A DNA stretch of 64,000 bases, taken from positions 19,043 to 83,042 of the forward strand of contig DASWMS010000058.1 in the NCBI GenBank assembly GCA_036399655.1, written 5' to 3'. The translations under genes and the position numbers were made by a program. Source of the stretch: Allosphingosinicella sp. GTDB taxonomy: Bacteria > Pseudomonadota > Alphaproteobacteria > Sphingomonadales > Sphingomonadaceae. This document shows positions 11,972-61,512 of this stretch, piece by piece (positions within the stretch are counted from its first letter, which is position 1; every line of letters begins with the position of its first letter). The notes under the pieces are model-generated. The model was not told the origin of the DNA. It ran no database searches and was given only the letters and a program-made list of their open reading frames with translations.

Positions 11972-12079
11972 TCGCCGCGAATAGCGGCGTGTCGGGATAG
12001 AACTGGGTTGCGTCGATAGCGCCGGCCTGTCCATCCTCGGTTTGCATCTGGCACCTGTTTCGTCAAGTATATAATTGCC

Positions 12080-44750: not shown

Positions 44751-47291
44751 GTGACGACTTCGTTCAAGATCGCGATCGTCGGCTCGGGTCCCGCGGGCCT
44801 CAGCGCCGCCGCGCGTGCCGCGCAGCTCGGCCTTTCCCACGTGCTGCTCGAAAAGACCGACCACCTTTCCGACACCATCTACAAATATCAGAAGGGCAAG
44901 CACGTCATGGCGACGCCGAGCCAGCTCGTGCTGCGCTCGGACATGGATTTCGAAGCCGGCAAGCGCGAGGCGATCCTCGGCACGTGGGACCGGATGGCCG
45001 CCGAGCACAAGATCAACGTGATGCTCAACGCCGAGGTTAAAGCGATCCGCGGCACAGGACCCGCCATCGAAGGCTCGGTCCAGAAGATCGTCTCGCGGGC
45101 GCGGGACGGCACGACGACGACCAAGGAAATCCAGCGCCACGCGCCGCCCTACGAGATCGTCATGACGAGCGGCGAGACGATCCTGGCCGAAAACGTCATC
45201 CTTGCCATCGGCACGCAGGGCAATCCGAACCTGATGCGCTGCGAAGGGGCGAGCCTGCCGCACGTCACCTACCAGCTCGACGATCCGTACGCGATTTTCG
45301 ACGAGCACATCCTCGTCGTCGGCACGGGCGATGCGGGGATCGAGAATGCGCGCGCGCTCGCCGAGGATCCGGCGCAGGGCAATGTCGTCACCATCCTCAA
45401 TCGCCAGCCTCGCTCGGCGAACGTGCGCGAAAGCTTCGCCACCGCCAAGGAGCCCAACGCCAAGGCGCTCATCCAGGACGACGCCGACGGCCGCCTCACC
45501 ATCCGCTACGAAACCGAGACCAAGGCGGTGGAGCCGGGCTGGGCAATCCTCAACACGCGCGACGGCGAGGAGCGCATCCGCTGCGACCGGATCATCGCCC
45601 GCATCGGCTCCGCGCCGCCGCGCGCCTTCGTCGAGAATTGCGGCATCGAGTTCGCGAGTTCGGACCGGACGGCCTTTCCCAAGCTTTCGCCGGTGTTTGA
45701 GACGACGGCGCCGGGCATCTTCGTGATCGGCGCGCTGGCCGGATACCCGCTGATCAAGCATTGCATGAACCAGGGCTACGACGTCGTCGAATTCGTCAAC
45801 GGCAACCGCGATCTGAAGCCCGCCGACGAGCCGATCCTGGAGCAGAAATTCGCAGGGCTCCCCGGCCGCCGCAGCGTCGACGAGTGGCTCGAATTCCTGC
45901 GCACCAGCGTCTCGATCCTGGAAGGCGTCTCTCCGCTTCAGATGCGCGAGTTCATGCTCGATTCGAAGGTCGAGCATTACCGCGCCGGCGAAGTCATTTT
46001 CGAGCGCAGCGACCCCGGCTCTTCCCTGTTCGGCATCGCCCAAGGCTCGGTCCTCGTCGAGGTGGACGCAAAAGACCGGAAGAAAGTCGTACCCATCGGC
46101 ACGGGCTCGATCTTCGGCGAGGTGGGACTCATCTCCGGCCGCCGCCGGGGCGCGACGGTGCGCGCCGGCGAGGATGCGATCGTCGTCGAAGTGTCGCGCC
46201 TCGCGGCGTTAAAGCTCATGTCGCAGGTCCCGGCCGCCAAGCGCGCGATCACCCGCATCTCGATCGAGCGGCAATTGCTGCAGATGTTCGGCTCAGGCCT
46301 GACGGCGGAAGACCTCACCGAAGTGATCGAAACGGCCAAGGTCGAATCGGTGAAAGCCGGCGAGGCAATCATCGAGGAAGGGGGCGAAGGCTACGACATC
46401 TTCGTCATCCGGCAGGGTTCGATGGTCGTCCAGAAGACGATCGGCGGGAAGCCGGTTTTCCTCTCCTATCTCCCGGCCGGCTCCTATGTCGGCGAAATGG
46501 CGCTGATCGACGGCGGGCGGCGCACCGCGACGGTGCGCGCCGCGGTCAAATCCGAAGTCATCCGCCTCGACGGCGACGCCTTCCGCCGCCTCCTTGGCGC
46601 CAAGCCCGATCTCCTCGCCAAGGCCGAGATCGACATGGCCGGGCGCAAGGCGATCAATGCGCTGATCGAGGAGAAGAAGCACGAATATGGCGGCGTCGTG
46701 GACATGTACTCGTCCATCGCCTCCTTCCTGGTCGAAAACGGCATCGGCGAAGCGACCGACGTGCTCCTCATCGACGAGAAACTCTGCGTCGGCTGCGACA
46801 ATTGCGAGAAGGCCTGCGCCGACAGCCACGAGGGCCTGTCCCGCCTCAACCGCGAGGCCGGCAAGACCTACGCCCACCTCCACGTGCCGACGTCATGCCG
46901 CCACTGCGAGCATCCGCACTGCATGGCCGATTGCCCGCCCAACGCGATCCACCGCGGCGCCGACGGCGAGGTCTTCATCGACGACACCTGCATCGGCTGC
47001 GGCAATTGCCAGAGGAACTGCCCCTACGGCGTCATTCGGATGGAAAAGGTGCCGCCGAGGAAGCCGCCGATGCTCTCCTGGCTGATGTTCGGCTTTGGCC
47101 CCGGCCCCGGGGAGCCGCCGAAGAAATGGACCGAGAAAAGGGTCAGCGCCGAGACTCCGAAGAAGGCGATCAAGTGCGACATGTGCGCCGGCATACGCGG
47201 CGGCCCGGCCTGCGTGCGCGCCTGCCCGACGGGCGCCGCGATCCGCGTCTCGCCGGAGCAGTTTCTTTCCGTGTCACGGCTGGGGGAGTGA
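44751..47291 (+). CDS. FAD/NAD(P)H oxidoreductase + 2 cNMP-binding domains + 4x[4Fe-4S] domain
   Basis: GSGPAGLSAA, VVGTGDAGIE, GIFVIG; FGEVGL..RGATVRA and VGEMAL..RTATVRA; CVGCDNCEKAC, CRHCEHPHCMADCP, CIGCGNCQRNCP, CDMC..PACVRACP. Confidence 0.9.
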   Translation: MTTSFKIAIVGSGPAGLSAAARAAQLGLSHVLLEKTDHLSDTIYKYQKGKHVMATPSQLVLRSDMDFEAGKREAILGTWDRMAAEHKINVMLNAEVKAIRGTGPAIEGSVQKIVSRARDGTTTTKEIQRHAPPYEIVMTSGETILAENVILAIGTQGNPNLMRCEGASLPHVTYQLDDPYAIFDEHILVVGTGDAGIENARALAEDPAQGNVVTILNRQPRSANVRESFATAKEPNAKALIQDDADGRLTIRYETETKAVEPGWAILNTRDGEERIRCDRIIARIGSAPPRAFVENCGIEFASSDRTAFPKLSPVFETTAPGIFVIGALAGYPLIKHCMNQGYDVVEFVNGNRDLKPADEPILEQKFAGLPGRRSVDEWLEFLRTSVSILEGVSPLQMREFMLDSKVEHYRAGEVIFERSDPGSSLFGIAQGSVLVEVDAKDRKKVVPIGTGSIFGEVGLISGRRRGATVRAGEDAIVVEVSRLAALKLMSQVPAAKRAITRISIERQLLQMFGSGLTAEDLTEVIETAKVESVKAGEAIIEEGGEGYDIFVIRQGSMVVQKTIGGKPVFLSYLPAGSYVGEMALIDGGRRTATVRAAVKSEVIRLDGDAFRRLLGAKPDLLAKAEIDMAGRKAINALIEEKKHEYGGVVDMYSSIASFLVENGIGEATDVLLIDEKLCVGCDNCEKACADSHEGLSRLNREAGKTYAHLHVPTSCRHCEHPHCMADCPPNAIHRGADGEVFIDDTCIGCGNCQRNCPYGVIRMEKVPPRKPPMLSWLMFGFGPGPGEPPKKWTEKRVSAETPKKAIKCDMCAGIRGGPACVRACPTGAAIRVSPEQFLSVSRLGE

Positions 47292-47315
47292 GCGCACCGG
47301 CGCCCGCTCCTCACC

Positions 47316-47409
47316 GTCATGCCGGACTTGATCCGGCATCCATGAACACCGGCCTGCGCGTTATCGCGCGGCCTCCTTGTTCATGGATCCTGACTTTCGT
47401 CAGGATGAC
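47316..47409. repeat. Composite REP-like element between oxidoreductase and membrane gene
   Basis: gtcatgccggacttgatccggcatccatgaaca...tgttcatggatcctgactttcgtcaggatgac. Confidence 0.8.
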
Positions 47410-47485
47410 TGCGGACTAGTTGTTGCGTCGGGGTAACAAACGCGCTTTGAGTAGGCGCGGGGCGACAGGGGACGACGCCGCGGCG

Positions 47486-48358
47486 ATGGCGACGGGGGCA
47501 GGCAGGACACATCTGGGGAGCGGCGGGACCCATGAGGGCTTCCTGCGGCACCGCCGATTCCGCTGGCTGAAGCTCGCCGTCCTGCTCTCGCTTATTACGA
47601 TCGCTGCCTACGCCCTTTCCGACGTCCAGCCGCGCCACAATGGCGGCTCCTGGCTCGGCTACACGCTGGGGACGATCGGCGCGCTGCTCATCCTCTGGCT
47701 GACCATGCTCGGCATCCGCAAGCGGGCGATGACCCGCGGGCGCTGGTCGCTCAAGTCATGGACCTCTGCGCACGTCTATCTCGGCCTGAGCCTCGTCGTG
47801 ATCGCGACGCTCCACACCGGTTTCCAGTTCGGCTGGAACGTCCACACGCTCGCTTATGCGCTGATGATGCTGGTGATCCTGTCGGGCGTGTACGGCATCT
47901 TCGTCTATGCGACGCTTCCCGATGCGCTGAGCGACAACCGCGCCGAGATGACACGGCCGCAGATGATCGACGCCGTCGCCAAGATCGACCAGCAGCTCCA
48001 GGCCGCCGCCCAGCCGCTTTCCGTCGAGGACGCCCGCCTCGTCACCTTGTCGCTGAAGGAGGATCCGTTCCGCGCCGGCCTCTACCGCCGCCTTTCGGGC
48101 AATCACGGCAATTGCCGCAACGGCAAGGCGCTGAAGCGGATGCGCCTGCGCGCCGCCGGGGCTTCGGGAGGGGAGAAAGAGGCGGCCGCCAGGGTCATCG
48201 AGCTGATGGAGCGCAAGGCCGCCGCGCTCGGGCGCATCCGGCGGCACCTCCGGATCAAGGCGCTGCTCGAAGTCTGGCTCTACGTCCACGTGCCGATCAC
48301 CTTCGCGACGATCGCCGCGCTCGCCGCGCACGTCGTCAGCGTCTTCTTCTACTGGTAG
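47486..48358 (+). CDS. Integral membrane protein, ferric-reductase/heme-b-like
   Basis: About 5-6 TM helices; two H-x13-H pairs (AHVYLG..TLHTG; VHVP..AAHVV). Confidence 0.75.
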   Translation: MATGAGRTHLGSGGTHEGFLRHRRFRWLKLAVLLSLITIAAYALSDVQPRHNGGSWLGYTLGTIGALLILWLTMLGIRKRAMTRGRWSLKSWTSAHVYLGLSLVVIATLHTGFQFGWNVHTLAYALMMLVILSGVYGIFVYATLPDALSDNRAEMTRPQMIDAVAKIDQQLQAAAQPLSVEDARLVTLSLKEDPFRAGLYRRLSGNHGNCRNGKALKRMRLRAAGASGGEKEAAARVIELMERKAAALGRIRRHLRIKALLEVWLYVHVPITFATIAALAAHVVSVFFYW

Positions 48359-48365
48359 CGGCGCG

Positions 48366-50213
48366 GTGGCCTATCTCCTCCGCACCGTCTCGCACAGCGC
48401 CGAAGGGCGCGAGATCGTCCGCACCGCCCGCATTGAAGGTGACGTGCTGACGGTCGGCCGCGATCCAGCCTCCAACGTCCACCTGACCGACCTTGCCGTC
48501 GCACTCCGCCACGCGACCGTCACCCGCACCTCGCCGACGCGGCTCGACGTCCTGGCGGGGGAGGGGCTTACCCTCGAATTGAGCGGCCGCAGCGTCGCTG
48601 GCGGCGCCATCCACCTCGGCCAGGGCGGCGACCTTCGCATCGGCAGCCACATCCTGCGCTTCATGCCGACGGAAGCCGGTGCGCCCGATATCGAGGTCAA
48701 TGTCGAGCGGGTGACGGAAGGCGAAACCGCGCTCGGCAAGGCCGACGAGCGCCGCTTTTCGCTCGTCTCGGTCATGCCCGGCAAGCGCCCGCTCGCCTGG
48801 CTCCTCGCCGCCGCCGTGCTGGTCGTCTTCCTCGCCTGGCCGGTGAACGAATTCTACCAGCGCCGCGAGCGCGAGCAGGCCGCCGCCGAGCGCTACAACC
48901 CAGACCGGATGTGGCTGAGCGGGCACCTCAGCGGCGTGCACAAGGGCCTCGAGAACAATTGCACCGCCTGTCACGCCGAGCCCTTCGTCGCGGTGCGCGA
49001 CACCGAATGCCAGGCCTGCCACACGCGGGTCCACGACCACGCCGACAAGGCGCGCCTCGCCCGCGCCCGGCCGGACCTCGACCGCTGGGGCCGCTTCCGC
49101 CTCGCCGTCCAGGAGACGTTCGGCGTGCCGGCGGGGCGCTGCGTCGACTGCCATACCGAGCATGAAGGCCCGCAGGAAATGACGCCGACGCCGCAGCGTT
49201 TCTGCAGCGACTGTCACACAGCGCTCACCGATCGCCTCCCCGACACGCGCCTCGGCAATGCCGGCGACTTCGGCACCGCCCATCCCGAATTCCAGCCCTC
49301 CGTGCTGATCCGCTGGGACAATGAAACGCCGGTGATGCAGCGCGTCTCGCTCGCGAACCGCCCGCCCGAGAATTCGAACCTGCGCTTCCCGCATGCGCTC
49401 CATCTTTCGCGCACCGGCGGCGTCGCGCAGATGGGGCGGCGGCTCGGCCGGCAGCACGGCTTCGGGGCAAGCCTCGTCTGCGCAGACTGCCACCTGCCGA
49501 CGCCGGACGGCACCCGCTTCCAGCCCGTCGACATGGAAGGCGACTGCGCCATGTGCCACGACCTCGCCTTCGACCGGGTCGGCGGCACCACGCGCACGCT
49601 CCGCCACGGCTCGCCCGAGCAGGTCGTCGCCGATCTTCGCGAATATTTCCGGGGGCGGGTTCCGCCACGGCCCTCGATCCTCGGCCCGGACGCGCGCCGC
49701 CGCCCGGGCGACGTCATGCAGATCCGCAACACGATCCAGTACGCCCGCGCCGTGCAGGGGGCCGGCTCGGCCGCCGACCAGGCGATCCGCGGTGTCTTCT
49801 CGCCGAACGGCGCCTGCTACGATTGCCACGTCGTCCAACTCCCGCCGCCCGGCAATTCGCACGCCTACCGGATCCGCCCCGTCGCCTTCCCGACGCGCTA
49901 CATGCAGCACGGCTGGTTCGATCACCGCCCGCATGCGCAGACCGAGTGCGCGACCTGCCACAATGCGGCGGGCTCGCAATCCGCCAACGACCTGCTCCTC
50001 CCGAGGCTGGAAACCTGCCGGACCTGCCACGGCGGCGAGAGCTCCGGCGAGGTTCCTTCCACCTGCGCCATGTGCCACGATTACCATATGGACGAAGGCA
50101 CGCCCGCCATGCTGCTGCGCCAGCGCGTCCGCGGCCGGCGGTGGGAAACGACCACCATCCCCGTCACGCCGCAGCCCGCTGCAGGCATGCCTCCGAGGAG
50201 GGCCCCGCGTTGA
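48366..50213 (+). CDS. FHA-like domain + TM helix + decaheme c-type cytochrome
   Basis: TVGRD..ALRHA; TM LAWLLAAAVLVVFLAWP; 10 CxxCH (CTACH, CQACH, CVDCH, CSDCH, CADCH, CAMCH, CYDCH, CATCH, CRTCH, CAMCH). Confidence 0.9.
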   Translation: MAYLLRTVSHSAEGREIVRTARIEGDVLTVGRDPASNVHLTDLAVALRHATVTRTSPTRLDVLAGEGLTLELSGRSVAGGAIHLGQGGDLRIGSHILRFMPTEAGAPDIEVNVERVTEGETALGKADERRFSLVSVMPGKRPLAWLLAAAVLVVFLAWPVNEFYQRREREQAAAERYNPDRMWLSGHLSGVHKGLENNCTACHAEPFVAVRDTECQACHTRVHDHADKARLARARPDLDRWGRFRLAVQETFGVPAGRCVDCHTEHEGPQEMTPTPQRFCSDCHTALTDRLPDTRLGNAGDFGTAHPEFQPSVLIRWDNETPVMQRVSLANRPPENSNLRFPHALHLSRTGGVAQMGRRLGRQHGFGASLVCADCHLPTPDGTRFQPVDMEGDCAMCHDLAFDRVGGTTRTLRHGSPEQVVADLREYFRGRVPPRPSILGPDARRRPGDVMQIRNTIQYARAVQGAGSAADQAIRGVFSPNGACYDCHVVQLPPPGNSHAYRIRPVAFPTRYMQHGWFDHRPHAQTECATCHNAAGSQSANDLLLPRLETCRTCHGGESSGEVPSTCAMCHDYHMDEGTPAMLLRQRVRGRRWETTTIPVTPQPAAGMPPRRAPR

Positions 50214-51082
50214 CCGACCAGCGCTTCCTGATCGCCCAGATCACCGACGTCCACCTCGGTTTCGACCAGGGGAATCCCGACGAATATAACCGCCAGCGGC
50301 TCGACCGCACCTTGCGCACGCTGATGGAGATGCAGCCGCGCCCGGACATGCTGCTCATCACAGGCGACCTTGCCGAGGAAGGCGACGACAGCGACTCCTA
50401 CGCGCGGCTCAAGGAGGCGATCGCGCCGCTGCCATTTCCCGTGCACATGGCAATGGGCAATCACGACAGCCGCGGCCCGTTCCTCGCCGCCTTTCCCGGG
50501 ACCGGCCACGCCGACGGCTTCATCCAATATGCGATCGAGGACGCGCCGCTGCGTATCCTCATGCTCGATACGCTGGAGGAAGGGCGGCATGGCGGCGGCT
50601 TCTGCGAAGTGCGCGCCGCCTGGCTCGCCGCGCGTCTCGCAGAAGCGCCGGAGCGCCCCACGCTCATCGTCCTCCACCACCCGCCGATCGAAACGGGCCT
50701 GAGCTGGATGACCGAGGACCCGGACGCCGCCTGGGTGCAGCGCCTGCGCGCCGTGATCGAGGCTCACACGAACATTCTCGCGATGATCGGCGGTCATCTC
50801 CACCGGCCGGTCATCACCGGCTGGGCGGGAACGATTCTGGCCGTCTGCCCGTCGACGGCGCCGCAGGTCGCGCTCGATCTCGCGCCGATCGATCCCGAGC
50901 GCCCGGACGGCCGCGCGATGATCGTGGCCGACCATCCCGCTTTCGCGCTGCACCTCTGGAACGGCCGCCAGCTCGTCACCCATTTCGACACGGCCGAGGA
51001 CCACAATGTCCTCGCGAGCTACACCCCGAAGCTCCAGCCGCTCGTGCGCCTGCTCACCGACGAGAGGAACAACCCCTCCTGA
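50210..51082 (+). CDS. Metallophosphoesterase, CpdA/Icc/GpdQ-like phosphodiesterase
   Basis: TTG overlaps upstream stop; QITDVH, TGDL, GNHD, HHPP, GHLH. Confidence 0.88.
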   Translation: MTDQRFLIAQITDVHLGFDQGNPDEYNRQRLDRTLRTLMEMQPRPDMLLITGDLAEEGDDSDSYARLKEAIAPLPFPVHMAMGNHDSRGPFLAAFPGTGHADGFIQYAIEDAPLRILMLDTLEEGRHGGGFCEVRAAWLAARLAEAPERPTLIVLHHPPIETGLSWMTEDPDAAWVQRLRAVIEAHTNILAMIGGHLHRPVITGWAGTILAVCPSTAPQVALDLAPIDPERPDGRAMIVADHPAFALHLWNGRQLVTHFDTAEDHNVLASYTPKLQPLVRLLTDERNNPS

Positions 51083-51103: not shown

Positions 51104-51367
51104 TCAGTTGGTCTTGATCCAGCTTCGAACGGCGGGCTGCATCCCGGCCTGCGGGTCGCCGGAGAGCTTCGCCACCACATAGTGGAACGTTCCTTCGACG
51201 GAGACGTGATGCTCGCCGAAATGAATGTCGGTGAACGGCCCGAGGGAGGAGCGGACGTAGGTGACCAGTTCGGTATTGATCGCGATGTTTCCGGGCTGGC
51301 CCCCGCGTTTCAATACGATGAGCGGCACCGGCGAAGCTCCCTGATCTGCATCAATTCCGGTTACCAC
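51104..51367 (-). CDS. Small hypothetical protein (FlbD-like pattern)
   Basis: LIVLKRGG....IAINTELVTYV; VSVEG....VVAKL. Confidence 0.5.
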   Translation of the reverse strand: MVTGIDADQGASPVPLIVLKRGGQPGNIAINTELVTYVRSSLGPFTDIHFGEHHVSVEGTFHYVVAKLSGDPQAGMQPAVRSWIKTN

Positions 51368-51385
51368 CCGCGGCTTAAGCGAAGG

Positions 51386-51895
51386 TTACGGTTGGAGCCG
51401 CGCGAGGATCGCCTCGACGCCCGCTTTCACGCCCGCATCGGGAGCGTGGGCGCTCATGCCGGGCAGGATCTCCATTCGGATGATCTGCGCGGCCGTTTCG
51501 TCCGGAAGCGCCTGCCTGAGACCGTCGCCGACTGCAATTCGCACGCGCCGGTCGTCCATGGCGAAGAGCAGGATGACACCGTCGTCGTGCCCGCGCCGGC
51601 CGATGCCCCAGCGGTTGCCGAGATCGCGGGTATAGTCGGCAATGCCGCGGCCGTTCGTGGTCCGGACCGTGACGAGGATGAACTGGTGCCCCGTCCGCCG
51701 CTCGAAGCCGCGGAGGCGCTCCGCGATCCTGTGCTCGTCGGCGGCGAGGAGCATGCCGGCCGAGTCGACGACATAGGCCGGACGCTCGAGAGTGGAGCTG
51801 ACCGCCGCCCGCCCCGGCGCCTGCGCATTGCCGCCGTCGGCGGCGGGCGTGCAGGCCGCGGCGACTGCGAGCGCGGCGAACAGGACGCGCCTCAA
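51386..51895 (-). CDS. TPM-domain lipoprotein
   Basis: TTG overlaps upstream stop; AAAC lipobox; VVDSAGML, TGHQFILVT, WGIGRRGHDDGVILLFA..DRRVRIAVG.GL. Confidence 0.85.
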   Translation of the reverse strand: MRRVLFAALAVAAACTPAADGGNAQAPGRAAVSSTLERPAYVVDSAGMLLAADEHRIAERLRGFERRTGHQFILVTVRTTNGRGIADYTRDLGNRWGIGRRGHDDGVILLFAMDDRRVRIAVGDGLRQALPDETAAQIIRMEILPGMSAHAPDAGVKAGVEAILARLQP

Positions 51896-54800
51896 CGCGC
51901 CGGCACCCAGTCGGCGAGGGAGCCGCGGTCGGTCACGCGGTAGGGCAGGCCGCGGCGGTTGAGGAACAGGCGCTCCATCTCGCTGCGGGTAAAGGGACGC
52001 GAGCCGAGACGGCCGAAGACGGCGATCTGGTTGCCGGTCTCGTCGACGCCGCGGTCGCGGTCGAGCCCCTTGGACAAAGCAAGGGCGGGGGAGGGGGTGC
52101 GCGCCCAGGCGATAAGCTCGGGCACCGGCCGCGGCGAGAAGCCGTAGAAATTGGGCTGGCTCTCCGGGCTGGTGAGCTGGAACAGTTTGAACCCGTTCAG
52201 CCCGTCCGCGACGTAGGCGAAGAGCGAGGCGTTGGTCGAGCCGACGATCACGTCCTGCGCGTCCGGCGCCTGCCCCGCTGGCCAGGCCACGGCAGGTCCG
52301 GCGGCGGGCCGCTCGGGATTGGTGATGTCGAGGATCACGAGCCCGTCGCGCCCGCCCGCCACGTAAGCGTAGGTGCGGGCGAGATAGAGCCGCCGCGCGT
52401 CCGCCATCCGGTGCGTCGCTTCCGGGATCAGGCGCGGCGCGCGCAGGTCGGTGACGTCGATGAGCTGCACGCCCTCGGCGCTTGTGACCCAAAGGTAGCG
52501 GAACTGGATCGCGGACGCGCGCGCGTCGCGGAGCGGGATCGTCGTCACATGCCGCGGCGCGAGCGGCTCGTTAAGATCGACGACGACGAGCCCCGCATCG
52601 GCGGCGATGTAGGCGACGGTGCCGGCAAGCGTGATGTGCCGCGCGCCCGCGAGCACACCGCCCTCGTTCCAGGCGGTACCGCCCGCCGTGAAGGTCGCGC
52701 GACGGATGAAATTGTTGCGCGGGTCGGCGTCGGCGAGGGTGTCGACGTCGACCAGGATCAGGCCTTCCTCGGCGTCGGTGACGACGGCGTAATCGTAGAT
52801 GGGGTGGAAGCCCTGCTCCTGGTTCTCGGCAAGGAGGCTGGTCGTCGTCCCGTCCGGCTGCGGCCGCGTCGTGGCGGCCATGGCGCGGTTGCGGTCCGGC
52901 GCGATCGGCTGGTTGGTGGGGAGCGCCATGCAGGTCGCGTTGCGGCTTGCGACCCGCGTGTCCTGGCCCATGGACGAGAAGGGCGCGGTGACGATCCGCT
53001 CGGACGTGCCCTTGTTGCCGATGTTCGCGACGTCGTAGACCCGGAAGCCGCCGCTTCCTTCCGCCACGAACATATATTCGCCGCGCTGCTGGAGGCAGCG
53101 GACCGCGCCGTCCGTTCCTTGCACGACGTTGCGGAATTCCTCGAGCGGCCGCGTCTCGCCGCTGCGGTTCCGGTCGAACGTGCGCCCGCGCGTCCAGTTG
53201 ACGAGCTCCCGCCGGTTCCGCTCGACATGCATCCGGTAATAATCCGGATAGGCCATGCGCTGGAGGTAGGAGCCGATCACCGCCTGCGGCTCGTCCCATT
53301 CCGTCACCCGCACCGCTTCGAAGCCTGAGTTCAGCCCGACCCACGAGTGCATGCCGACGAAGTTGACGAAGTTCGTCCCCTGCAAAAGGAGCTGCGCCAT
53401 GATCGCATTGTTGTCGTTCGCTGCCGACACATGGCAGTCGCTGCACGTCTTGGTCTCGGTGCGGCGCACGGTGTGCGGGAAGTGCGGCGCGAAGGCCTGG
53501 CTCGAAAAGCCGGACGCCGAGATCGGCGGCTGCTGGACGTAGATGCGCTCGCGATTGATGTTGGTCGACGACAGGATCAGCGCCGAGGTCGATCGGATCG
53601 GCGCGATGATGTTGCCGCGCGTCGTCATGTGGCGGCCGAGCTGGAACATGTCCTCGCGCGCCACCTGCGGATTGTAGGTTGCGAAGTTGCGCGTCTCTTC
53701 GCCGTCGTAGCGGTGCGACGTCGTCCGCCAGTTCGCCTCGATCGGGAGGTGGCAGCCGGCGCAGCTCGTCGTCCATGAAAGGTGGCAGGTGAAGCAGGCC
53801 ATCTCGTCGTCGGGATGGGCGAGCGCGTCGTCGGCGACGCCTGCTCCAAACACGAACCGCCCGGTGTCCGCGCCCTCCCGCGACATGAGCTTGGAGCGCG
53901 CCGAAAGTTCGTTGAAGCACGGGCCGGTGCTCATCCCCTGCGACGCCGGTCCGCAGGGCGGCAAGTCCCGGTCGACACTGTCGCGGACCTGGCTCACCAC
54001 CCACTCGATCTGCGGATCGACGATCGAGCGCTGGATGAGCACGCGGCGCCCCGCATCGTCCTGCATCCATTCGAAGCGCCGTCGCCCGTCCTCGTTCCTG
54101 ATCAGCTCCAGGTTCGTGCCGTTGGGGGGCGCGGCCGGTCCGGAGGTGCGCAGGTTGGCGAAGGCGCGCGCGGTGCCGTGGCAATCCTTGCAGCTGATCT
54201 CGATGGCGTTCGCGACTTCGCCGTAGATGAAGCCGGTGCCGTGGCTGTCGCGCGAGAAATGGCAGTCCGCGCATTGCATGCCGCGCTCGGCATGGATGTC
54301 CATCATGTGCACCGCGCGCCCCGGATTGGTGCCGGGCGGGACGAACAGCCCTTCATTTTCGCGGCGGAAGGTGTTCGGGTCGCCGGGCGGAATCCGCTGG
54401 CCGTCCTCGTCGACGAGATTGCCCTCGCGGTCGCGGCGGAAGATGGCGCGGAAGTTCCAGCCGTGGCCGTGATAGTCGGCGAACTGGGTGTGGCGCGCGA
54501 GCGGGTTCACCCGGTCGTACACTTCGCGAAGGAAATCGGTCTCCGCCCAAAGCCCGCGCGGGGCCGCGCCTTCCGGATTGCGGTTGAGCACTTCCAGCGT
54601 CTCCGCCGCCGTCGGATAGCGCTGCTGGCGGAAGCGCGCTTCCTCCTCGGCATTGCGCGCGGGCAGGCGGTTCTCCGGCCCCGGCCACATCAGATCGGCG
54701 TCGGATTCGTAGTCCCACATCGTGTAGCCGAGATACGAGTTCAGGAAGATGTTCGGCTGGTGCATGTGGCAGACCATGCATTGCGACGTCGGTATCGCGC

Positions 54801-56142
54801 GCGTGAAGACGTGGCGGATCGGATGCCCGCGTTCGCGCATTGCGGCGTGATTTGTGTCCGTTGGAGCGTCGCTATGCTGCGCAGCATTTTGCGGCTCTGC
54901 GCTCGCAGTTTCCGGCCCGTGAGCGCCGCGCTCAGTCAGCCCTGAGATCGTCGGATCGACCGTCGCCGTCTGCCCGTCGCGCCCGTGCTCGGCATAAGCG
55001 AGGCTGTGCCGCGGCTCGCGGTCGTTGGCGTAGACGACATGGCAGCCCGAGCAGCCGGAGTGGCGATAATCGCCCGGCTGGTCGTTCGTCCCCATGAACC
55101 ACATGAAGGGATCGTTGAGCCGCGTCTTGTGGATGTTGAGCACGGGGATGGCGACGCGCAGCCCTGTGCCGGGTCCGCGGTTCGACTGGCGGATGTCGGG
55201 CCGCCCCGCTTCCTCCAGCCGCTGGATCGATCCCGAAGGAGAGGGGAGGCCGATCTCCGGAAATTGCGTCCCGATCGTCCGCCCGCCGCGCTCGAAGACG
55301 CGGAACACGTCGCCCGGCGGAATGACGTGCCAGGTCGGCAGCGGATAGAGTTCGGCGATCACGCCGCGCGCGCGCTGCTCCGGCGTGATCTCGCCCGGAA
55401 TCGTCCCCGGCGACTGGATGCGCGCCGGCTGGCCGGAGCGCGTATAGGCCTCGCCGAACAGATAATTCTTATAAGGGACGATGCCGTTATTGTAGGCGGC
55501 CCCGCCCCACAGCATCGCGCCCGTCGCCATGAGCGAGCGCTCGGCCGCTTCGATGATCTCGATATGGCAGGCGCCGCACGCTTCGCGCGCCGCGCGGTAA
55601 TCGGACGGGTTGTTGAAGCGCACGAACTCCGGCGATTCGATGTTGAGCAGGGTGTAGCTTTGCCGCGGGTTGGCGGAGGAGGGGAAGTGCCAGGCGGCCG
55701 GATAGCGCGGCAGCACGTGAGCGAGATCGCGCGCCGCCACATAAGCGGGATCGTTCGCGGCGAGGTTTCCCGCCGGCGCGGTGACCCGCGGATTGCCGCC
55801 GTGGCAATCGACGCAGCCGAGCACCACCGCGGGCGTCCGGTGCATCGTGTGCGAGTCGCTCCCCGTGTGGCACGACACGCAGCCCGAGCTCTGCGCTTCC
55901 GCCGCCACCGGGTCCTGCGTCCGCGGCGCCGGCGCCGCGCGCACGAGGCTGTAATCCCGCGCGACCGCCTTCTCCTTTTCGGACGCACCGGCGGGCCCGG
56001 CCAGCATCCCCGCCAACTCCGTCATTCCCGCGAAAGCGGGAATCCAGGCCCAGCCTTTCCACCCGCTTCGGCGCCCCGCGGAAACGCTCGCTGGATTCCC
56101 GCTTTCGCGGGAATGACGGCGGAGGGCGAACAGGCGCCGCAT
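51892..56142 (-). CDS. Giant decaheme c-type cytochrome with C-terminal LVIVD repeats (1416 aa)
   Basis: ATG coupled to upstream TGA (TGATG); 10 CxxCH (CVSCH, CVDCH, CGACH, CSGCH, CMVCH, CADCH, CKDCH, CFTCH, CAGCH, CSDCH); about 6 repeats like YAYVAGGRDGLVILDITNP. Confidence 0.88.
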   Translation of the reverse strand: MRRLFALRRHSRESGNPASVSAGRRSGWKGWAWIPAFAGMTELAGMLAGPAGASEKEKAVARDYSLVRAAPAPRTQDPVAAEAQSSGCVSCHTGSDSHTMHRTPAVVLGCVDCHGGNPRVTAPAGNLAANDPAYVAARDLAHVLPRYPAAWHFPSSANPRQSYTLLNIESPEFVRFNNPSDYRAAREACGACHIEIIEAAERSLMATGAMLWGGAAYNNGIVPYKNYLFGEAYTRSGQPARIQSPGTIPGEITPEQRARGVIAELYPLPTWHVIPPGDVFRVFERGGRTIGTQFPEIGLPSPSGSIQRLEEAGRPDIRQSNRGPGTGLRVAIPVLNIHKTRLNDPFMWFMGTNDQPGDYRHSGCSGCHVVYANDREPRHSLAYAEHGRDGQTATVDPTISGLTERGAHGPETASAEPQNAAQHSDAPTDTNHAAMRERGHPIRHVFTRAIPTSQCMVCHMHQPNIFLNSYLGYTMWDYESDADLMWPGPENRLPARNAEEEARFRQQRYPTAAETLEVLNRNPEGAAPRGLWAETDFLREVYDRVNPLARHTQFADYHGHGWNFRAIFRRDREGNLVDEDGQRIPPGDPNTFRRENEGLFVPPGTNPGRAVHMMDIHAERGMQCADCHFSRDSHGTGFIYGEVANAIEISCKDCHGTARAFANLRTSGPAAPPNGTNLELIRNEDGRRRFEWMQDDAGRRVLIQRSIVDPQIEWVVSQVRDSVDRDLPPCGPASQGMSTGPCFNELSARSKLMSREGADTGRFVFGAGVADDALAHPDDEMACFTCHLSWTTSCAGCHLPIEANWRTTSHRYDGEETRNFATYNPQVAREDMFQLGRHMTTRGNIIAPIRSTSALILSSTNINRERIYVQQPPISASGFSSQAFAPHFPHTVRRTETKTCSDCHVSAANDNNAIMAQLLLQGTNFVNFVGMHSWVGLNSGFEAVRVTEWDEPQAVIGSYLQRMAYPDYYRMHVERNRRELVNWTRGRTFDRNRSGETRPLEEFRNVVQGTDGAVRCLQQRGEYMFVAEGSGGFRVYDVANIGNKGTSERIVTAPFSSMGQDTRVASRNATCMALPTNQPIAPDRNRAMAATTRPQPDGTTTSLLAENQEQGFHPIYDYAVVTDAEEGLILVDVDTLADADPRNNFIRRATFTAGGTAWNEGGVLAGARHITLAGTVAYIAADAGLVVVDLNEPLAPRHVTTIPLRDARASAIQFRYLWVTSAEGVQLIDVTDLRAPRLIPEATHRMADARRLYLARTYAYVAGGRDGLVILDITNPERPAAGPAVAWPAGQAPDAQDVIVGSTNASLFAYVADGLNGFKLFQLTSPESQPNFYGFSPRPVPELIAWARTPSPALALSKGLDRDRGVDETGNQIAVFGRLGSRPFTRSEMERLFLNRRGLPYRVTDRGSLADWVPAR
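56019..56119. repeat. REP-like element in frame within N-terminus of giant cytochrome
   Basis: Same family as 2767-2859; translates RHSRESGNP...WIPAFAGMT. Confidence 0.85.
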
Positions 56143-58160
56143 CAGTAAGTCACGATCGCGTTCAGGAGCACGGAATAGTATCGGTCGTGCCGGGGCTGGT
56201 TGGCGAACAGGTCGCGAAAGCCGGTGCCGGGCTGCAGCGCCGCCGCCGAGGCGCGGAAGACGAGGTTCTGAGTCATGCGCGGCCGCCAGATCGCCGCCGC
56301 CGACACGTCGAAGCCGATGTCGTTGCGGATGGTCCCCTGCATCCGCAGCGCCTCCATCGTGCCCGTCCGCGCGAACCAGAGGTGGTTCAAGTTCGCCGAC
56401 AGCCGGAAGGTCGGCGTGATGTCGAAGTCCGCGCCGGCCCCCAAGAGGATCGTTCCCGGATTGACGAAGTTCGACTGCCCCTGCTCCTTGGAGGAGCGCA
56501 GCGAATTCAGGATGCCGTTGCGCCCGCTGAGGACGATCGCCCGCCCGCCGCCGGCAAACGGGATGGACTGGCGGATCCAATAGCTCGTGTCGGCGCCTGC
56601 GAAGATCGGGTTCTCGAAGATCGAATCGAACCCGCTTTCGACATTGTCGTAAGGATCGCCGTCCCCGCTCGCGAACAGGGCGGCCCCGCGCACCCTGATC
56701 CAGTTCATGTCGTAGCTCGGCTCCGCGGCGGCGAAGAAGCTCGTAATCCGCGCATTCTCGCCGGTGAAGATGTTCTTCCGGTTGTGCCCCAGCGCCGCAT
56801 AGGTCTGCGCCGAAAGGTTCACCCGCCCGATCCGCCCGTCGGCGGCATAGCCGACGTACAGGACGTCGTAATTGCGCCCGCGCAGGTTTCCGATCAGCGC
56901 CGGCCGCACCGGAAAGCCGTTGTCGTCCACCTCGACATCGCCGCGCTCGCGGTTGACGTTCAAGGTGACGCTCGCCTGGCTCGTCATGCCGACGAAGGGG
57001 AAATCCTGGCGGTAGACGTTCGCCGCCAGGATCCAGTCGCTCCGCGGCCATTGCAGGATGTTGTTGAGGCCGGAATTCGTGTCCTTTTCCAGCCGCCAGA
57101 TCGCCATGACATTGTACTGGAACCGGTTGTTGTCCCGATTGCCGAACAGGCGGACGCCGAGCTGGTTGTCGTTGAACAGGAAGCCGCGGAAATCGAACTG
57201 GAAGGGCTGGATGCCGACGCGGACCGAGTCGAAGTCGTAGCGGTCCGACACGTTGCGCAGATGGTCGTCGACGAACAGTTCCTGGACGCCGATCGCGTAA
57301 TCGAAGCGGTTGGTGCCCTTGGACGGCTCCACGAAGAGCACCCGCCGCTCCGGCACATCGACATAGTTGGCCTGCACCGCCAGGGTGACCCGATATTCGC
57401 GGTGCGGCGGCATGTAGGCGGTCGAGCCCTCGATCAGCGCGGCGCCGACGATGAACGTCTGGGCGAGGACCAGGCTCTCGCTGCGCCCGAAGACGTCGAG
57501 GCTTCCGGGACGCTGCGTCGTCTGCACGCCGACGGGGATCGGAAAGTTGCGCGGCTCGATCACCGTGTCCGAGACGGCGTTCGCGACCAGGAACCAGCCG
57601 TCGCCGTGGAGGCCGAGCGCGCGCGTCAGCCGGCAGCCGTAGCTGCGCGGCCGCTCCTCGCCGACGCAGAGCGGCCTGTCGCCCTTCAGCGTGTTCTGGT
57701 TGTAGGGATCGAACCAGCGTTCCCGCACCACGCCCAGCGACTCGATGAGCCGCCAGCGGTCCGGAACCGGAATCTGGTCGGTTGGAAACGCTTCGGGCGG
57801 CGGCGATCGGATTGCGCCCGGATTCTCCTGCACGACCGGATCGGGAAGCTCATGCTGCGGCGTTCCGGGGCGGCGTCGGCCTTCTTCGTCCGGCGTCTGC
57901 TCCTCCGGGCGCTCGGCGGGCGGCACCTGCCCGGGCCACCAGCCCGGCTCCTGCTGCGTCGGCGGCGTCGAGGGAGGCTGCGCCGCCTGAGCCCACACCG
58001 CGTCATTCCCGCGAAAGCGGGAATCCATGAACACCGCGTGCGCAAATCTTTCCCCGCCTGTGTTCATGGATGCCGGATCAAGTCCGGCATGACGGGGAAG
58101 GGCTGCACCGCCCGGATCGAGGGCGGCGGCGAGGTGGAGGAGCGGGCCTGCAACCTGCAC
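56142..58160 (-). CDS. Predicted outer-membrane beta-barrel protein
   Basis: GTG 2 nt after upstream stop; Pro/Glu-rich N-region, then amphipathic strand patterns; C-terminus YYSVLLNAIVTY ending in an aromatic residue. Confidence 0.72.
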   Translation of the reverse strand: MQVAGPLLHLAAALDPGGAALPRHAGLDPASMNTGGERFAHAVFMDSRFRGNDAVWAQAAQPPSTPPTQQEPGWWPGQVPPAERPEEQTPDEEGRRRPGTPQHELPDPVVQENPGAIRSPPPEAFPTDQIPVPDRWRLIESLGVVRERWFDPYNQNTLKGDRPLCVGEERPRSYGCRLTRALGLHGDGWFLVANAVSDTVIEPRNFPIPVGVQTTQRPGSLDVFGRSESLVLAQTFIVGAALIEGSTAYMPPHREYRVTLAVQANYVDVPERRVLFVEPSKGTNRFDYAIGVQELFVDDHLRNVSDRYDFDSVRVGIQPFQFDFRGFLFNDNQLGVRLFGNRDNNRFQYNVMAIWRLEKDTNSGLNNILQWPRSDWILAANVYRQDFPFVGMTSQASVTLNVNRERGDVEVDDNGFPVRPALIGNLRGRNYDVLYVGYAADGRIGRVNLSAQTYAALGHNRKNIFTGENARITSFFAAAEPSYDMNWIRVRGAALFASGDGDPYDNVESGFDSIFENPIFAGADTSYWIRQSIPFAGGGRAIVLSGRNGILNSLRSSKEQGQSNFVNPGTILLGAGADFDITPTFRLSANLNHLWFARTGTMEALRMQGTIRNDIGFDVSAAAIWRPRMTQNLVFRASAAALQPGTGFRDLFANQPRHDRYYSVLLNAIVTY
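58001..58094. repeat. Composite REP-like element in frame within beta-barrel N-terminus
   Basis: cgtcattcccgcgaaagcgggaatccatgaaca...tgttcatggatgccggatcaagtccggcatgacg; translates RHAGLDPAS...MDSRFRGND. Confidence 0.85.
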
Positions 58161-58162
58161 GC

Positions 58163-60118
58163 CTATCGCCCCTGGCAGACATTCTGGTCGTTCGATCCGA
58201 GGAACGGCGTGAACGGGCAGCCGACATAGCGCAGCCGCACCTGATCGTTGCCGACCCGGCCGAATATCTGGTCCGATCGGATTGCCGGATCGGCATTGTT
58301 GACGCTCGTCGTGCGCACGCCCGCATTGTGGATGCCGAGGAACGAGATCATGTCGTCCTGGTCGATGCCGTCGCCCGAGACGCCGAGTCCGCCGATGAGC
58401 TGGTTGCCGCGATAGACGGGGACCGAGCCCGGAAAGATCTGGATGCCGTTCGCAATCCGGTTCGTGCCGGGAAGGCCGGTGCACTGGCTCGGCGCGTCCG
58501 CGCCGCCGCCGAGGATGAAGCCGACATGGGCGCGCACGTCCTGCTCGATCAGCGCCGATTGCAGCCCGGTCGAGAAGGGGTTGAACTCGGCGATGCTGCG
58601 CGACAGCGGCCCCGGCGGGCGGCCGAGCTCGCCGTCCGGGAAATAAGGGCGGTGGATGTTGCCGATGGCGCGATCGGACCAGGCGGTCTGGCCGGTGAAG
58701 ATCGCGTTCGTGCCGAAGAAGGCGCGCGACGCGGCGACGAACTGCCGCACGTCGGGATCGGCGTGCATGTCGAGCTGCGCCGCCGCCATCGGGTGGCTGA
58801 AGTACATCGCCGTGCGCGCCTTTTGCAGCGACACGTCGATGCCGAAGATGGGCGCGTCGGGCGAGCGGACGATGCCGAGCACGGCACCGTTCGTGTCCAC
58901 CAGCGAGATCGTCACTTCCGCGCGGCTGTCGAGCGGGCGGCGGATCTGCGCCCGCGCTGCTGACATGATCCGGAACGCCTCTTCGAGCAAAGCCCGCGAC
59001 TCCGCTGCGGTGATCGGCTGCGGGATCGAGTCCAGCGCGGCGCGCACCGGGAAGCGGTTGGTGCCCCCGCCGTCGGAAAGGACGAACGCGTCGGGGTTCG
59101 AGAATTCCGCCAGCGTCGCCGCGCGGATGCCGGAGCCTTCGCTCCCGTAGGCGCGGCCCGCCTGCATGCCGAAACTGGGGTCGTAATAGCCGCGCACCGG
59201 AACGAGGCTGCCCGGGATCGAGCCGAAGGCCGGCGCGCTCCCGCCCTTGAGGTCGTTCGCCTCGACGTCGCTGTAGCGCAGCAATGTGCCGTCCACGCTG
59301 ATCCGCTCTGCGCGAATGCCTTCGGGCGCTTCGAAGCCGCGCGTCGCGGCGAGCGCGATCGCTTCCTCGTCGTCCTTGTCGGTGTCGCGCACTTCGGGAT
59401 CGAAGCCGTAGACCCCGTCCGCCATGATCCCGACGCCGCCGATCAGGACTCCGTTCCGGTAGAGCGGGAAGCCTCCGGGATCGGCGGCCAGGCCGAGCGG
59501 CGAGCGCTTCGGCCCGATGAAGGCGCTGCCGCCGCCGACGCCGTTATAGCGGGTGTTGAGGTCCGAGCAGGGAAGCTGGCTGAACTGCACGCCGAACAAA
59601 GGCCCGCTTTCCAGCCCGCGCGTGGCGGCCGACGGCGGGAAATGTTCCTGCACGATCATGCTCGCCGTGCGCGTCGAAAAGGCATTGCCGCCCGAGGAGA
59701 GATAGGCGCCGGTCACCGCCTTGGCGATCGCCCCCGCCACCGCGCCCGGCACGTCGATGCCCTGGAGATCGTTCATGCTCCCGTTCGGGGCGTTCGGCAC
59801 CCGGAGCTGCTGGTTGGCCCCGGTCATTGAAAAGACGGCAAGCACGTTGCCGACCCGGTCGACCACAGCGATGTTGGCGGGCCGCCCGCGCGCCGCCGCT
59901 TCGCCGGCCGCATTGGCGATGACCTGCTGGACGTCGGCGACGCTCAGCGCTTCGGGGGCCGGCACCGAATAGAGCCTGGCGGCCGGCGGCGGGTTCGGCG
60001 GGGGAGGGGGCGAGGGGGGTGCCTCGCCGCCGCCGCCTCCGCCCCCTCCGCCGCCGCCTCCCCCGCACGAAGCTAGGAGCAGGGCCGCGATGGCGAGGGC
60101 GGAGGCGGCGCCGCGCAT
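58163..60118 (-). CDS. Lipoprotein with two GlcG/HbpS-like heme-binding domains
   Basis: Lipobox LASC, Gly13/Pro linker; IAVVDRVGNVL..AIAKA.T, ISLVDTNG..SLQKARTA, GGFPLY..IGGVG, GSVPVY..IGGLGVSG. Confidence 0.82.
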   Translation of the reverse strand: MRGAASALAIAALLLASCGGGGGGGGGGGGGEAPPSPPPPPNPPPAARLYSVPAPEALSVADVQQVIANAAGEAAARGRPANIAVVDRVGNVLAVFSMTGANQQLRVPNAPNGSMNDLQGIDVPGAVAGAIAKAVTGAYLSSGGNAFSTRTASMIVQEHFPPSAATRGLESGPLFGVQFSQLPCSDLNTRYNGVGGGSAFIGPKRSPLGLAADPGGFPLYRNGVLIGGVGIMADGVYGFDPEVRDTDKDDEEAIALAATRGFEAPEGIRAERISVDGTLLRYSDVEANDLKGGSAPAFGSIPGSLVPVRGYYDPSFGMQAGRAYGSEGSGIRAATLAEFSNPDAFVLSDGGGTNRFPVRAALDSIPQPITAAESRALLEEAFRIMSAARAQIRRPLDSRAEVTISLVDTNGAVLGIVRSPDAPIFGIDVSLQKARTAMYFSHPMAAAQLDMHADPDVRQFVAASRAFFGTNAIFTGQTAWSDRAIGNIHRPYFPDGELGRPPGPLSRSIAEFNPFSTGLQSALIEQDVRAHVGFILGGGADAPSQCTGLPGTNRIANGIQIFPGSVPVYRGNQLIGGLGVSGDGIDQDDMISFLGIHNAGVRTTSVNNADPAIRSDQIFGRVGNDQVRLRYVGCPFTPFLGSNDQNVCQGR

Positions 60119-61512
60119 CAGCGCAATCTGCGGATCGCAGTGGCCGCCCGGCCGAGCGCGGCGCGGAAGACCCTCGGATCATATTCGTTGGGATCGCGCA
60201 CCGCCTGGTAGGCGACGTTGATGTCGGCCCGGATCGTATTCGCCCGCTCGGTGGTGACGGTACCGCCCGAGACGAGCGCGGAGAGCAATGTGTCGGTCGC
60301 CATCACCGCCTGCACGCTGCCGGCATAATCGGTGAAGCGCTCGGAGATGGCGCTGGTCGTGATCGCGTCGATGATCGCGAAGGTCTGCGCCGCGCCCATG
60401 GTGGCCGACCCGAAGGCGCTGGACAGTGCCCGCGCGGTTTCGCGCAGCGCCGCCGCCGCACGCACCGCGCTGATCCGGTCGCTGGCGACGGCGCGGTGGA
60501 ATGCGCGGCTGTCCCGCTCGAAGCGCGCCGCGATCTCGGGCGAGACGACCCGCGCCGCCGCGGCGAGCATGATCATGTTCTCGTCATTGTAGGGCGGCAT
60601 GCCGAGCGGGATCGGGCGGCCGGGATTGCCGATCGCGGTCGGCTCGAAAGCCGGATTGTCCGAGATGCGTCGGTGGCAGGAGTGGCAATCGAGGAAATAG
60701 AATTCCGGGAAGATGCCCTCCGTCCCGCGCTCCGACGACGCGAACAGGGTCAGCGACCGCTCCAGCGCCATCGCCTGGCCGACCGCCCAGGTCTGGACCG
60801 GGCTCGGTCGTCCCTTGCGCGCGGCGTAGTCGGCATCTTCGGTGTGGTGCGCCTGGAGGGTCGTGAACAGGTCGAGCTCGAATGCGATGCGCGGGTGGCC
60901 GGCCGCCATCATCCGGTGGTTGACGAACTGTCCCTCGTCGGCGCTTCCGAAGTGGCAGTCGAGGCAGACGCCCGCCCGCGCGCGCGGGTTCTCGAGCGGC
61001 GTCATGCCGCGCTGGACGTTGTTGGCGTGGGTTCCGCCGACCGCATAATGGCTCGCCAGCCAGCCGCCGGCCGGCCCGTGGCAGCCTTCGCAGCCCACCC
61101 CGTCCGTCACCTGGAACCTCGGCCCCCGCCGCGAGGGCGCGGCCGGCGTCGCGTGGCAGCCGACGCACATCTCCGCCCGGGTCGCGTCGCCGCCCGCAAG
61201 CCCCAGCCGCTGCGCGATTAGCCGCGAGCGCGGAGAAGCGAGCACCGCATGGGCGCGGCTGTGGGCGCCGGCGGGACTTGCCGGGTCCTGCCAGATCATG
61301 AGTTCGTCCTGGCGCACGACCGCGCCATTGCCTTCGCTGCGCCCGTGGCAGGTGGTCCCGCCGCAGCTCGCCGTGCCGACGAAGGCGCCGCTGCTCGCGG
61401 GCGCCGTGTTCTGCGCCTCGGCGGAGGGCACGCCGGCGAGGAACAGCACCAGCCCCGCCAGGGCGAGCCCCAGCGTGCCGAACCCGATCGCAACGTCGCG
61501 ATTTCGCCCCAT
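60118..61512 (-). CDS. Multiheme cytochrome, c554-like N-domain (4 CxxCH + 1 Cx4CH)
   Basis: Signal/TM; FVGTASCGGTTCH, CVGCH, GVGCEGCHGP, CLDCH, CHSCH; helical C-terminus. Confidence 0.85.
   Translation of the reverse strand: MGRNRDVAIGFGTLGLALAGLVLFLAGVPSAEAQNTAPASSGAFVGTASCGGTTCHGRSEGNGAVVRQDELMIWQDPASPAGAHSRAHAVLASPRSRLIAQRLGLAGGDATRAEMCVGCHATPAAPSRRGPRFQVTDGVGCEGCHGPAGGWLASHYAVGGTHANNVQRGMTPLENPRARAGVCLDCHFGSADEGQFVNHRMMAAGHPRIAFELDLFTTLQAHHTEDADYAARKGRPSPVQTWAVGQAMALERSLTLFASSERGTEGIFPEFYFLDCHSCHRRISDNPAFEPTAIGNPGRPIPLGMPPYNDENMIMLAAAARVVSPEIAARFERDSRAFHRAVASDRISAVRAAAALRETARALSSAFGSATMGAAQTFAIIDAITTSAISERFTDYAGSVQAVMATDTLLSALVSGGTVTTERANTIRADINVAYQAVRDPNEYDPRVFRAALGRAATAIRRLR

Follow-up and report, generated by a model that had tools for sequence, protein, structure and literature searches.

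Extracellular electron transfer is understood chiefly from anaerobic metal reducers and iron oxidisers. In the porin-cytochrome conduits MtrCAB (Shewanella) and OmaB-OmbB-OmcB (Geobacter), an operon encodes a multiheme cytochrome of the periplasm, a barrel of the outer membrane and, as the outer component, a large multiheme cytochrome, a layout shared by the locus described here. In Geobacter, ExtI, which resembles phosphate porins, has been proposed as the substrate channel in selenite and tellurite reduction (PMC5877670). Further, the Desulfovibrio ferrophilus IS5 and Candidatus Tenderia uet clusters combine multiheme cytochromes with separate NHL beta-propellers, which are proposed to stand in for the barrel (PMC5815863; bioRxiv 10.1101/2022.05.06.490989). 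The present analysis concerns two adjacent genes, one for an outer-membrane beta-barrel and one for a decaheme cytochrome fused to an LVIVD propeller, on a 64-kb stretch of DNA from Allosphingosinicella sp. (64,000 nucleotides of contig DASWMS010000058.1; hereafter the window). The window has a G+C content of ~68% and originates from a biocrust metagenome, and its close relatives are Allosphingosinicella and Sphingosinicella (Sphingomonadales).

The pair may constitute the outer-membrane end of an envelope electron-transfer module, as a non-homologous analogue of the porin-cytochrome conduits; this is the preferred and most economical reading, and it is given an even chance of being correct. 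The features of the pair are as follows:

56142-58160, minus strand: outer-membrane beta-barrel gene (672 aa, GTG start at 58160; from the open reading frame, AlphaFold2 and Foldseek)
51892-56142, minus strand: decaheme-LVIVD gene (1416 aa, with an ATG that shares one nucleotide with the stop codon of the barrel gene)
53143-55980, minus strand: heme domain, aa 55-1000 (ten CXXCH motifs, all kept across phyla)
51895-53115, minus strand: C-terminal LVIVD beta-propeller region (PF08309), aa ~1010-1330, with at least six repeats, then a conserved tail of ~90 aa

This arrangement had been proposed by an earlier sequence-only reading of the window, which proved accurate on several points: its open reading frame coordinates and the TGATG overlap at 56140-56144 are exact; the barrel it named is predicted by AlphaFold2 to have 18 strands and is matched by Foldseek to outer-membrane barrels; the ten hemes it placed in the N-terminal two thirds correspond to ten CXXCH motifs, all within the first 64% of the protein (aa 88-904); and its roughly six C-terminal LVIVD repeats correspond to a PF08309 match (E = 7e-16) with six repeats readable by eye at aa 1016-1325.

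Both proteins have thousands of homologues, all of them annotated as hypothetical. Relatives of the barrel are present in at least 562 species-level genomes (a lower bound from a scan with one genome per species); the best 80 barrel-bearing genomes are all Sphingomonadales, one of them deposited as Enterovirga, and the carriers include cultured strains of Sphingobium, Sphingopyxis, Novosphingobium, Sphingomonas, the Erythrobacter group and Tsuneonella. An exhaustive search of 50%-identity representatives retrieved 2741 clusters with similarity to the heme domain, 545 of them at E <= 1e-30, and distant relatives of the decaheme protein belong to Planctomycetota, Acidobacteriota, Rokubacteria and Candidatus Xenobia. 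Seven distant full-length homologues were scanned against Pfam, and every one of them has the heme domain fused to LVIVD repeats. The cross-phylum sample comprised three loci with abutting genes (Planctomycetota, Acidobacteriota and Rokubacteria) and a fourth, Acidobacteria-like locus, L086. In each of the first three, a barrel homologue (39-40% identity over ~550-630 aa, E 1e-111 to 1e-120) lies directly upstream of the decaheme-LVIVD gene. With the Sphingomonadales included, the adjacency extends over at least four phyla, and the pairing is taken to be ancient. In L086, a HicA/HicB toxin-antitoxin pair (9546-9985) sits between the decaheme-LVIVD gene and a putative barrel gene, the product of which matches the confirmed barrel of locus L084 in size and N-terminal domain and has no BLAST alignment with the barrel of the window. 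The Acidobacteria barrel also carries an N-terminal CarboxypepD_reg domain.

At the junction of the pair, the barrel frame ends in ACT TAC TGA, with the stop codon at 56144-56142, and the decaheme ATG occupies 56142-56140, giving TGATG on the minus strand. For the survey of gene order, 82 Sphingomonadales loci were fetched and junctions were counted over 80 of them; TGATG was present in 53-55 and the others mostly had gaps of 0-3 nt, so the overlap is not a chance event. In the three abutting loci from other phyla, the spacer is 23-60 nt. The functional link that the sequence-only reading had drawn between the two genes is upheld by their adjacency in the examined Sphingomonadales loci as well as in the three other phyla, while the ‘stoichiometric production’ it derived from the overlap was overstated: the 1-nt overlap is a habit of the Sphingomonadales, the genes elsewhere are separated by these spacers, and a hairpin folding at -93 kcal/mol (z = -6.8) begins 18 nt past the decaheme ATG of the window. 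In three Allosphingosinicella-like loci (L005, L007 and L017), insertions of 0.7-3 kb separate the barrel stop from the decaheme start, that of L005 including transposase-like sequence, and mobile DNA seems to enter the junction with particular frequency.

The barrel protein consists of a short signal-like N-terminus, a conserved Pro-rich periplasmic extension of ~130 aa and an 18-strand barrel, and ends in an aromatic residue. The AlphaFold2 model, built from 49 homologues (mean per-residue confidence, pLDDT, 61, and mostly 70-85 in the strands; predicted TM-score, pTM, 0.62), has 18 long strands running antiparallel, joined by connections that are alternately long and short, as outer-membrane barrels should be, and leaves the N-terminal ~130 aa disordered. 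A highly conserved insert of 72 aa joins strands 13 and 14 and is predicted from strand parity to be an extracellular loop. This loop (GFDxIxxxPxFAG ... KxEGQxNFxNPG) and a motif preceding strand 1 (DRW ... DPYxQNxLKGDxP) are the most conserved features of the protein, and the motifs DFRGFLF, GFDxIxxxPxFAG and KxEGQxNFxNPG are invariant across phyla. The barrel has no match in Pfam at E <= 0.1 and none in NCBIfam, and sequence and profile searches of the PDB gave no match. With Foldseek, the top match of the model is AlgE, an alginate exporter of 18 strands (E 1.8e-14, with a TM-score of 0.63 on the target), followed by Campylobacter MOMP, chitoporins and OccK/OprD channels. The top 50 matches consist of AlgE, OccK and porins, all solute channels, and MtrB is not among them.

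That the best structural matches (AlgE, chitoporin, OccK/OprD) are substrate-specific channels favours the main rival to the conduit, in which the decaheme-propeller protein is a soluble or tethered periplasmic multiheme oxidoreductase whose substrate enters, or whose product leaves, through the AlgE/OprD-like barrel. Such a role would suit a pore of 18 strands in which the conserved 72-aa loop could form a constriction, and it has a precedent in the porin-like ExtI (PMC5877670). On balance this explanation is considered possible and rather unlikely. The structural matches bear also on the proposal of a barrel dedicated to translocation or anchoring, which exports the decaheme-propeller protein or holds it at the surface and carries no electrons itself. 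The strict adjacency of the two genes across phyla, the extracellular loop and the periplasmic N-terminal extension as possible docking sites, and the want of any other evident export route are in keeping with this proposal. Nevertheless, the barrel is unlike known protein-translocating barrels, its 50 top matches being solute channels, and a folded, heme-loaded protein of ~150 kDa is unlikely to pass through an 18-strand pore, which makes the proposal improbable.

The CXXCH motifs of the 1416-aa protein are located at aa 88, 110, 189, 364, 455, 624, 651, 783, 794 and 900, with heme-free gaps of 171, 165, 128 and 102 aa between motifs, and the protein qualifies as a multiheme c-type cytochrome, with ten motifs and with relatives that carry Sec or lipoprotein signals. 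The sequence-only reading had suggested that this protein might be a terminal redox enzyme and not just a wire, and on this the observations point both ways. The heme density is ~1 per 95 aa. A spacing of this order is nearer to that of multiheme enzymes than to that of MtrA-type wires, which again points towards a periplasmic oxidoreductase. The same holds for the results of the PDB searches, in which the cross-phylum profile gave a borderline, local, colinear two-segment match to octaheme nitrite reductase (TvNiR, E 0.001) and a weaker one to NrfA (E 0.06-0.08), spanning one pair of hemes in the N-terminal part and a second pair in ‘IH..G..C.DCH ... C..CH’; the searches otherwise gave only borderline local matches. 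A local similarity to ExtM tends in the same direction (model NF040943, 75.6 bits against a cut-off of 800, E 2.6e-21, best stretch aa 614-660).

Several features of the same protein are at odds with such an enzyme. All ten motifs are plain CXXCH, with no CXXCK or other atypical heme motif in the window protein that might mark a catalytic heme, and all ten are kept across phyla, the third as CX4CH in the Acidobacteria homologues. In the cross-phylum alignment of the heme domain, 11 further His residues are invariant and one more is near-invariant, so distal His residues would suffice for bis-His coordination of all ten hemes, and in the propeller no His or Cys is conserved across phyla. The LVIVD repeats of the propeller score 49-58 bits with PF08309 (57.7 in one scan) against a cut-off of 20.2. 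Such repeats were originally described from cell-surface proteins of archaea and bacteria (PMC2447325), and a domain typical of surface proteins would be out of place in a periplasmic reductase.

The signals and anchors of the cytochrome differ among lineages. The Sphingomonadales proteins, with a plain Sec signal, agree with a periplasmic enzyme, and a plain Sec signal is found in most Acidobacteria as well. Lipid or membrane anchors in many other lineages speak against it: a lipobox is present in all nine aligned homologues of the Planctomycetota clade, in the Rokubacteria homologue and in several others, and two Acidobacteria or Acidobacteria-like homologues (P0427 and P0432) end in a hydrophobic transmembrane helix and a basic tail, resembling a sorting signal. 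The Planctomycetota homologues P0248 and P0396-P0411 combine the lipobox with a long, Lys/Glu-rich, coiled-coil-like tail. Taken from sequence, the signals, anchors, LVIVD repeats and loop conservation fit a membrane-tethered, barrel-associated cytochrome, and do not prove its exposure at the surface.

The pair lies within a minus-strand operon, in which the other genes are:

60118-61512, minus strand: c554-like pentaheme periplasmic cytochrome with a signal peptide, encoded at the head of the operon (heme motifs: one CX4CH, four CXXCH)
58163-60118, minus strand: HbpS/GlcG-like repeat lipoprotein, 651 aa, with the lipobox LLASC and a Gly/Pro linker behind it (three stretches match PF03928, E 2.4e-21)
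51386-51895, minus strand: TPM-domain lipoprotein, 169 aa, with a TTG start overlapping the decaheme stop codon (PF04536, E 3e-34)

The successive junctions are TGATG (pentaheme/HbpS-like), a gap of 2 nt (HbpS-like/barrel), TGATG (barrel/decaheme) and TTGA (decaheme/TPM). Every fetched Sphingomonadales locus long enough to show it has the genes in the order pentaheme, HbpS-like, barrel, decaheme, and the HbpS-like lipoprotein is kept in the module across phyla. The pentaheme homologue has 464 aa in locus L001, and homologues are found in L084 and L085 too; the first heme motif of the window protein is CGGTTCH (CX4CH), at aa 90 of the long open reading frame. The TPM-domain gene was seen only in the closest relatives and is therefore placed outside the conserved core, so that its product was rejected as a member of the module. 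Past it, an open reading frame of 74 aa (51160-51384, minus strand; 67-90% identity) is likewise conserved only in the closest relatives. Next to the cluster lies a CcmH-like gene for cytochrome maturation.

A second operon, on the plus strand (44751-51082), converges on that of the pair and encodes, apart from a metallophosphoesterase, the following proteins:

44751-47291, plus strand: cytoplasmic FAD/NAD(P)H oxidoreductase with two cyclic-nucleotide (cNMP)-binding domains and a 4Fe-4S dicluster domain, 846 aa, first gene
47486-48358, plus strand: membrane protein of ~290 aa in which two transmembrane helices hold two conserved pairs of His (candidate di-heme b carrier)
48366-50213, plus strand: membrane-anchored decaheme cytochrome with an FHA-like cytoplasmic N-terminus

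Each of these His pairs has a spacing of 14 residues, and both pairs are retained even in a Rokubacteria homologue; such a pattern is what typically marks a transmembrane carrier of electrons with two b hemes. Judged by its gene content, the operon looks like an inner-membrane electron-export module, and it adjoins the pair in about half of the Sphingomonadales loci. HbpS-like, c554-like and cNMP-binding NAD(P)H-oxidising genes are found near the pair in other phyla too, the HbpS-like and pentaheme partners sometimes on the opposite strand, and analogous cNMP-binding NAD(P)H modules are present in L084, L085 and L086. In these other phyla NuoEF/NuoG-like or NDH-2-like proteins take the place of the cytoplasmic partner, with the cNMP-binding domains retained. 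The wider module, as far as gene content tells, thus recurs with interchangeable cytoplasmic proteins of putative electron-input function.

If the pair is the outer end of such a module, electrons would leave cytoplasmic NAD(P)H, cross the inner membrane via two b-type hemes and run via the anchored decaheme and the pentaheme cytochromes to the decaheme-propeller protein, which would be held at the barrel or partly threaded through it. The propeller and the long heme-free inserts could then bind the final partner, be it a mineral, an organic acceptor, oxygen or another protein. In the Sphingomonadales, translation of the decaheme protein would begin at the overlapping ATG, so that both proteins could come from one ribosome run. 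A dedicated chain of more than 25 hemes from NAD(P)H to the periplasm would be unusual for the reductase of a soluble substrate, which argues further against a periplasmic enzyme. A more specific form of the conduit, put forward tentatively and with somewhat less than even confidence, is a regulated one, in which a cyclic-nucleotide-gated NAD(P)H oxidoreductase bypasses the quinone pool and feeds a di-heme b protein and ~25 c-type hemes leading to the barrel/decaheme-propeller complex, in several phyla.

A number of observations weigh against the conduit. None of the components is recognised by Pfam or NCBIfam as a member of any known conduit family. MtrB has 26 strands, and an 18-strand barrel is much narrower, which makes the passage of a heme chain doubtful. 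No His, Cys or Met is conserved in the barrel in the alignment of homologues, the decaheme protein of the Sphingomonadales has its plain Sec signal and no lipobox, and no route for its export across the outer membrane was identified. Further, in about half of the loci the inner-membrane module is not within 10 kb of the pair. An AlphaFold2 model of the heme domain (aa 55-1010, alignment of 47 sequences) was discarded (pLDDT 34, pTM 0.24) and lends the conduit no help.

The N-termini of both proteins of the pair are interrupted by elements resembling repetitive extragenic palindromes (REP) or miniature inverted-repeat transposable elements (MITE):

56019-56119, no strand assigned: 101-bp REP/MITE-like palindrome whose inverted arms match perfectly over 29 nt, lying in frame within the signal-peptide n-region of the decaheme protein
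58002-58093, no strand assigned: related REP-like element, in frame, just past the hydrophobic N-terminus of the barrel protein

A further copy is located at 2767-2859 of the window. The arms hold the hairpin ATTCCCGC-TTTC-GCGGGAAT and translate as RHSRESGNP...IPAFAGMT; it is the element at 56019-56119 that folds into the stable hairpin behind the decaheme start codon. The window decaheme protein is without a normal signal peptide at its N-terminus and continues with SEKEK after the putative cleavage point. The relative P0001, which is 96% identical and has no REP, begins with MRRL at the same overlapping ATG, in support of that start codon, and has the classic signal peptide MRRLAKLVLAAAGLVAAAAVGTSAGA followed after cleavage by SEKEK, so that the N-terminal difference between the two proteins is the in-frame 101-bp element.

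Such insertions are widespread. An insert of the same kind is present at the same place in the barrel homologues P0148 and P0212, and a REP-type insert just after the overlapping ATG was found in at least 13 loci and in 11 of 46 aligned homologous proteins, the window excluded. Besides the window, loci with elements of this kind in the decaheme signal peptide or near the barrel N-terminus are L006, L008, L009, L012, L014, L019, L027, L035, L036, L045, L050 and L074. These inserts near the decaheme ATG are of several sequence types, leave the frame open every time and are followed by a hydrophobic stretch and a cleavage site. The alternative decaheme start at an ATG within the REP (56025) is disfavoured, as each of the 13 loci checked has its insert in frame with the overlapping ATG. 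A frame so consistently kept would be needless for a start downstream of the REP, which argues that the overlapping ATG is the start in use. Signal-peptide n-regions seem to be tolerated landing sites for REPs, and a ribosome that finishes the barrel gene would, by re-initiating, be helped past the hairpin.

Independent Logan contigs of the source metagenome cross from unique sequence into both arms of the 56019-56119 element, which rules out an assembly artefact, and a related strain in another metagenome run is without the 101-bp element; the insertion is therefore real and polymorphic. The word depth of the REP in biocrust and soil metagenomes is 2000-13000, against ~9 for the flanks. Given these insertions, the pair might also be disabled in this genome, with both signal peptides damaged and the genes decaying. 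The hydrophobic stretch that follows the REP in the window (23 residues) contains Glu and is weaker than those of relatives, and the hairpin so close to the start codon would be in line with such damage. Against this, the open reading frames of 672 and 1416 codons are intact and 96% identical to the insert-free relative, and similar in-frame REP inserts with a preserved n-h-c signal layout are present in many species, making decay of the pair very improbable.

It is surprising that a system so broadly conserved, present in common soil bacteria with an aerobic life and apparently linked to NAD(P)H, is so far wholly uncharacterised; each of these points is unexpected in itself. The carriers of the module include cultured and genetically tractable aerobes (Sphingobium, Sphingopyxis, Novosphingobium and Erythrobacter) as well as major uncultured soil phyla. 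If the pair is a conduit, redox chemistry at the cell surface is to be expected in more organisms and settings, for example oxic soils and biocrusts; the locus would offer candidate machinery for the extracellular reduction or superoxide production of heterotrophs, and the porin-cytochrome theme would gain a new barrel architecture. If the conduit is in addition regulated, common aerobic soil heterotrophs among the Sphingomonadales, Acidobacteriota, Planctomycetota and Rokubacteria could reduce extracellular targets such as Fe(III), Mn(IV), humic substances or oxygen, the last yielding superoxide, in a controlled manner. A periplasmic enzyme with its own channel would in turn represent a new class of multiheme oxidoreductases.

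Neither the barrel nor the decaheme-propeller protein belongs to a described family, although the types of component are ordinary, and a full-text literature search found no description of the barrel/decaheme-LVIVD family. In comparison with MtrCAB, the barrel and cytochrome genes of the window are likewise adjacent and co-oriented, and the outer cytochrome, a lipoprotein in the case of MtrC and OmcB, is a lipoprotein in several lineages here too. The components themselves differ: the barrel is 18-stranded and AlgE-like and does not belong to the MtrB/PioB family; the periplasmic cytochrome has five hemes and scores 18.3 bits with TIGR03508 (MtrA/DmsE) against a cut-off of 192; and the decaheme protein of the window scores 12.6 bits with PF22113 (MtrC/OmcA) against a cut-off of 30 and has no lipobox. 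The porin-cytochrome conduits have, furthermore, no counterpart to the LVIVD propeller fused to the outer cytochrome, the HbpS-like lipoprotein or the NAD(P)H-linked inner-membrane part.

The barrel resembles AlgE (PDB 3RBH), its best structural match, in the 18-strand fold. It differs in having only 8-11% sequence identity, no match to Pfam Alginate_exp and no polysaccharide genes nearby, the neighbours being cytochromes, and in adding the 130-aa N-terminal extension and the conserved 72-aa loop. The decaheme protein shares with NrfA and the octaheme nitrite reductases a local colinear match and a similarly low heme density, but it is without CXXCK and about three times larger, and the match is borderline. 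The Geobacter cluster extHIJKLMNOPQS also groups a porin-like barrel (ExtI) with multiheme cytochromes (ExtKL, ExtM, ExtN and ExtS) and a b-type membrane cytochrome; however, the match of the decaheme protein to ExtM covers a single heme-pair region and is far under the cut-off, and the ext cluster has neither the propeller fusion nor an HbpS-like protein. The nearest published ideas are the separate NHL-propeller proteins of the D. ferrophilus and Candidatus Tenderia cytochrome clusters, where multiheme cytochromes are likewise paired with beta-propellers in proposed extracellular electron-transfer modules, whereas in the present locus cytochrome and LVIVD propeller form a single protein, alongside which there is also a barrel.

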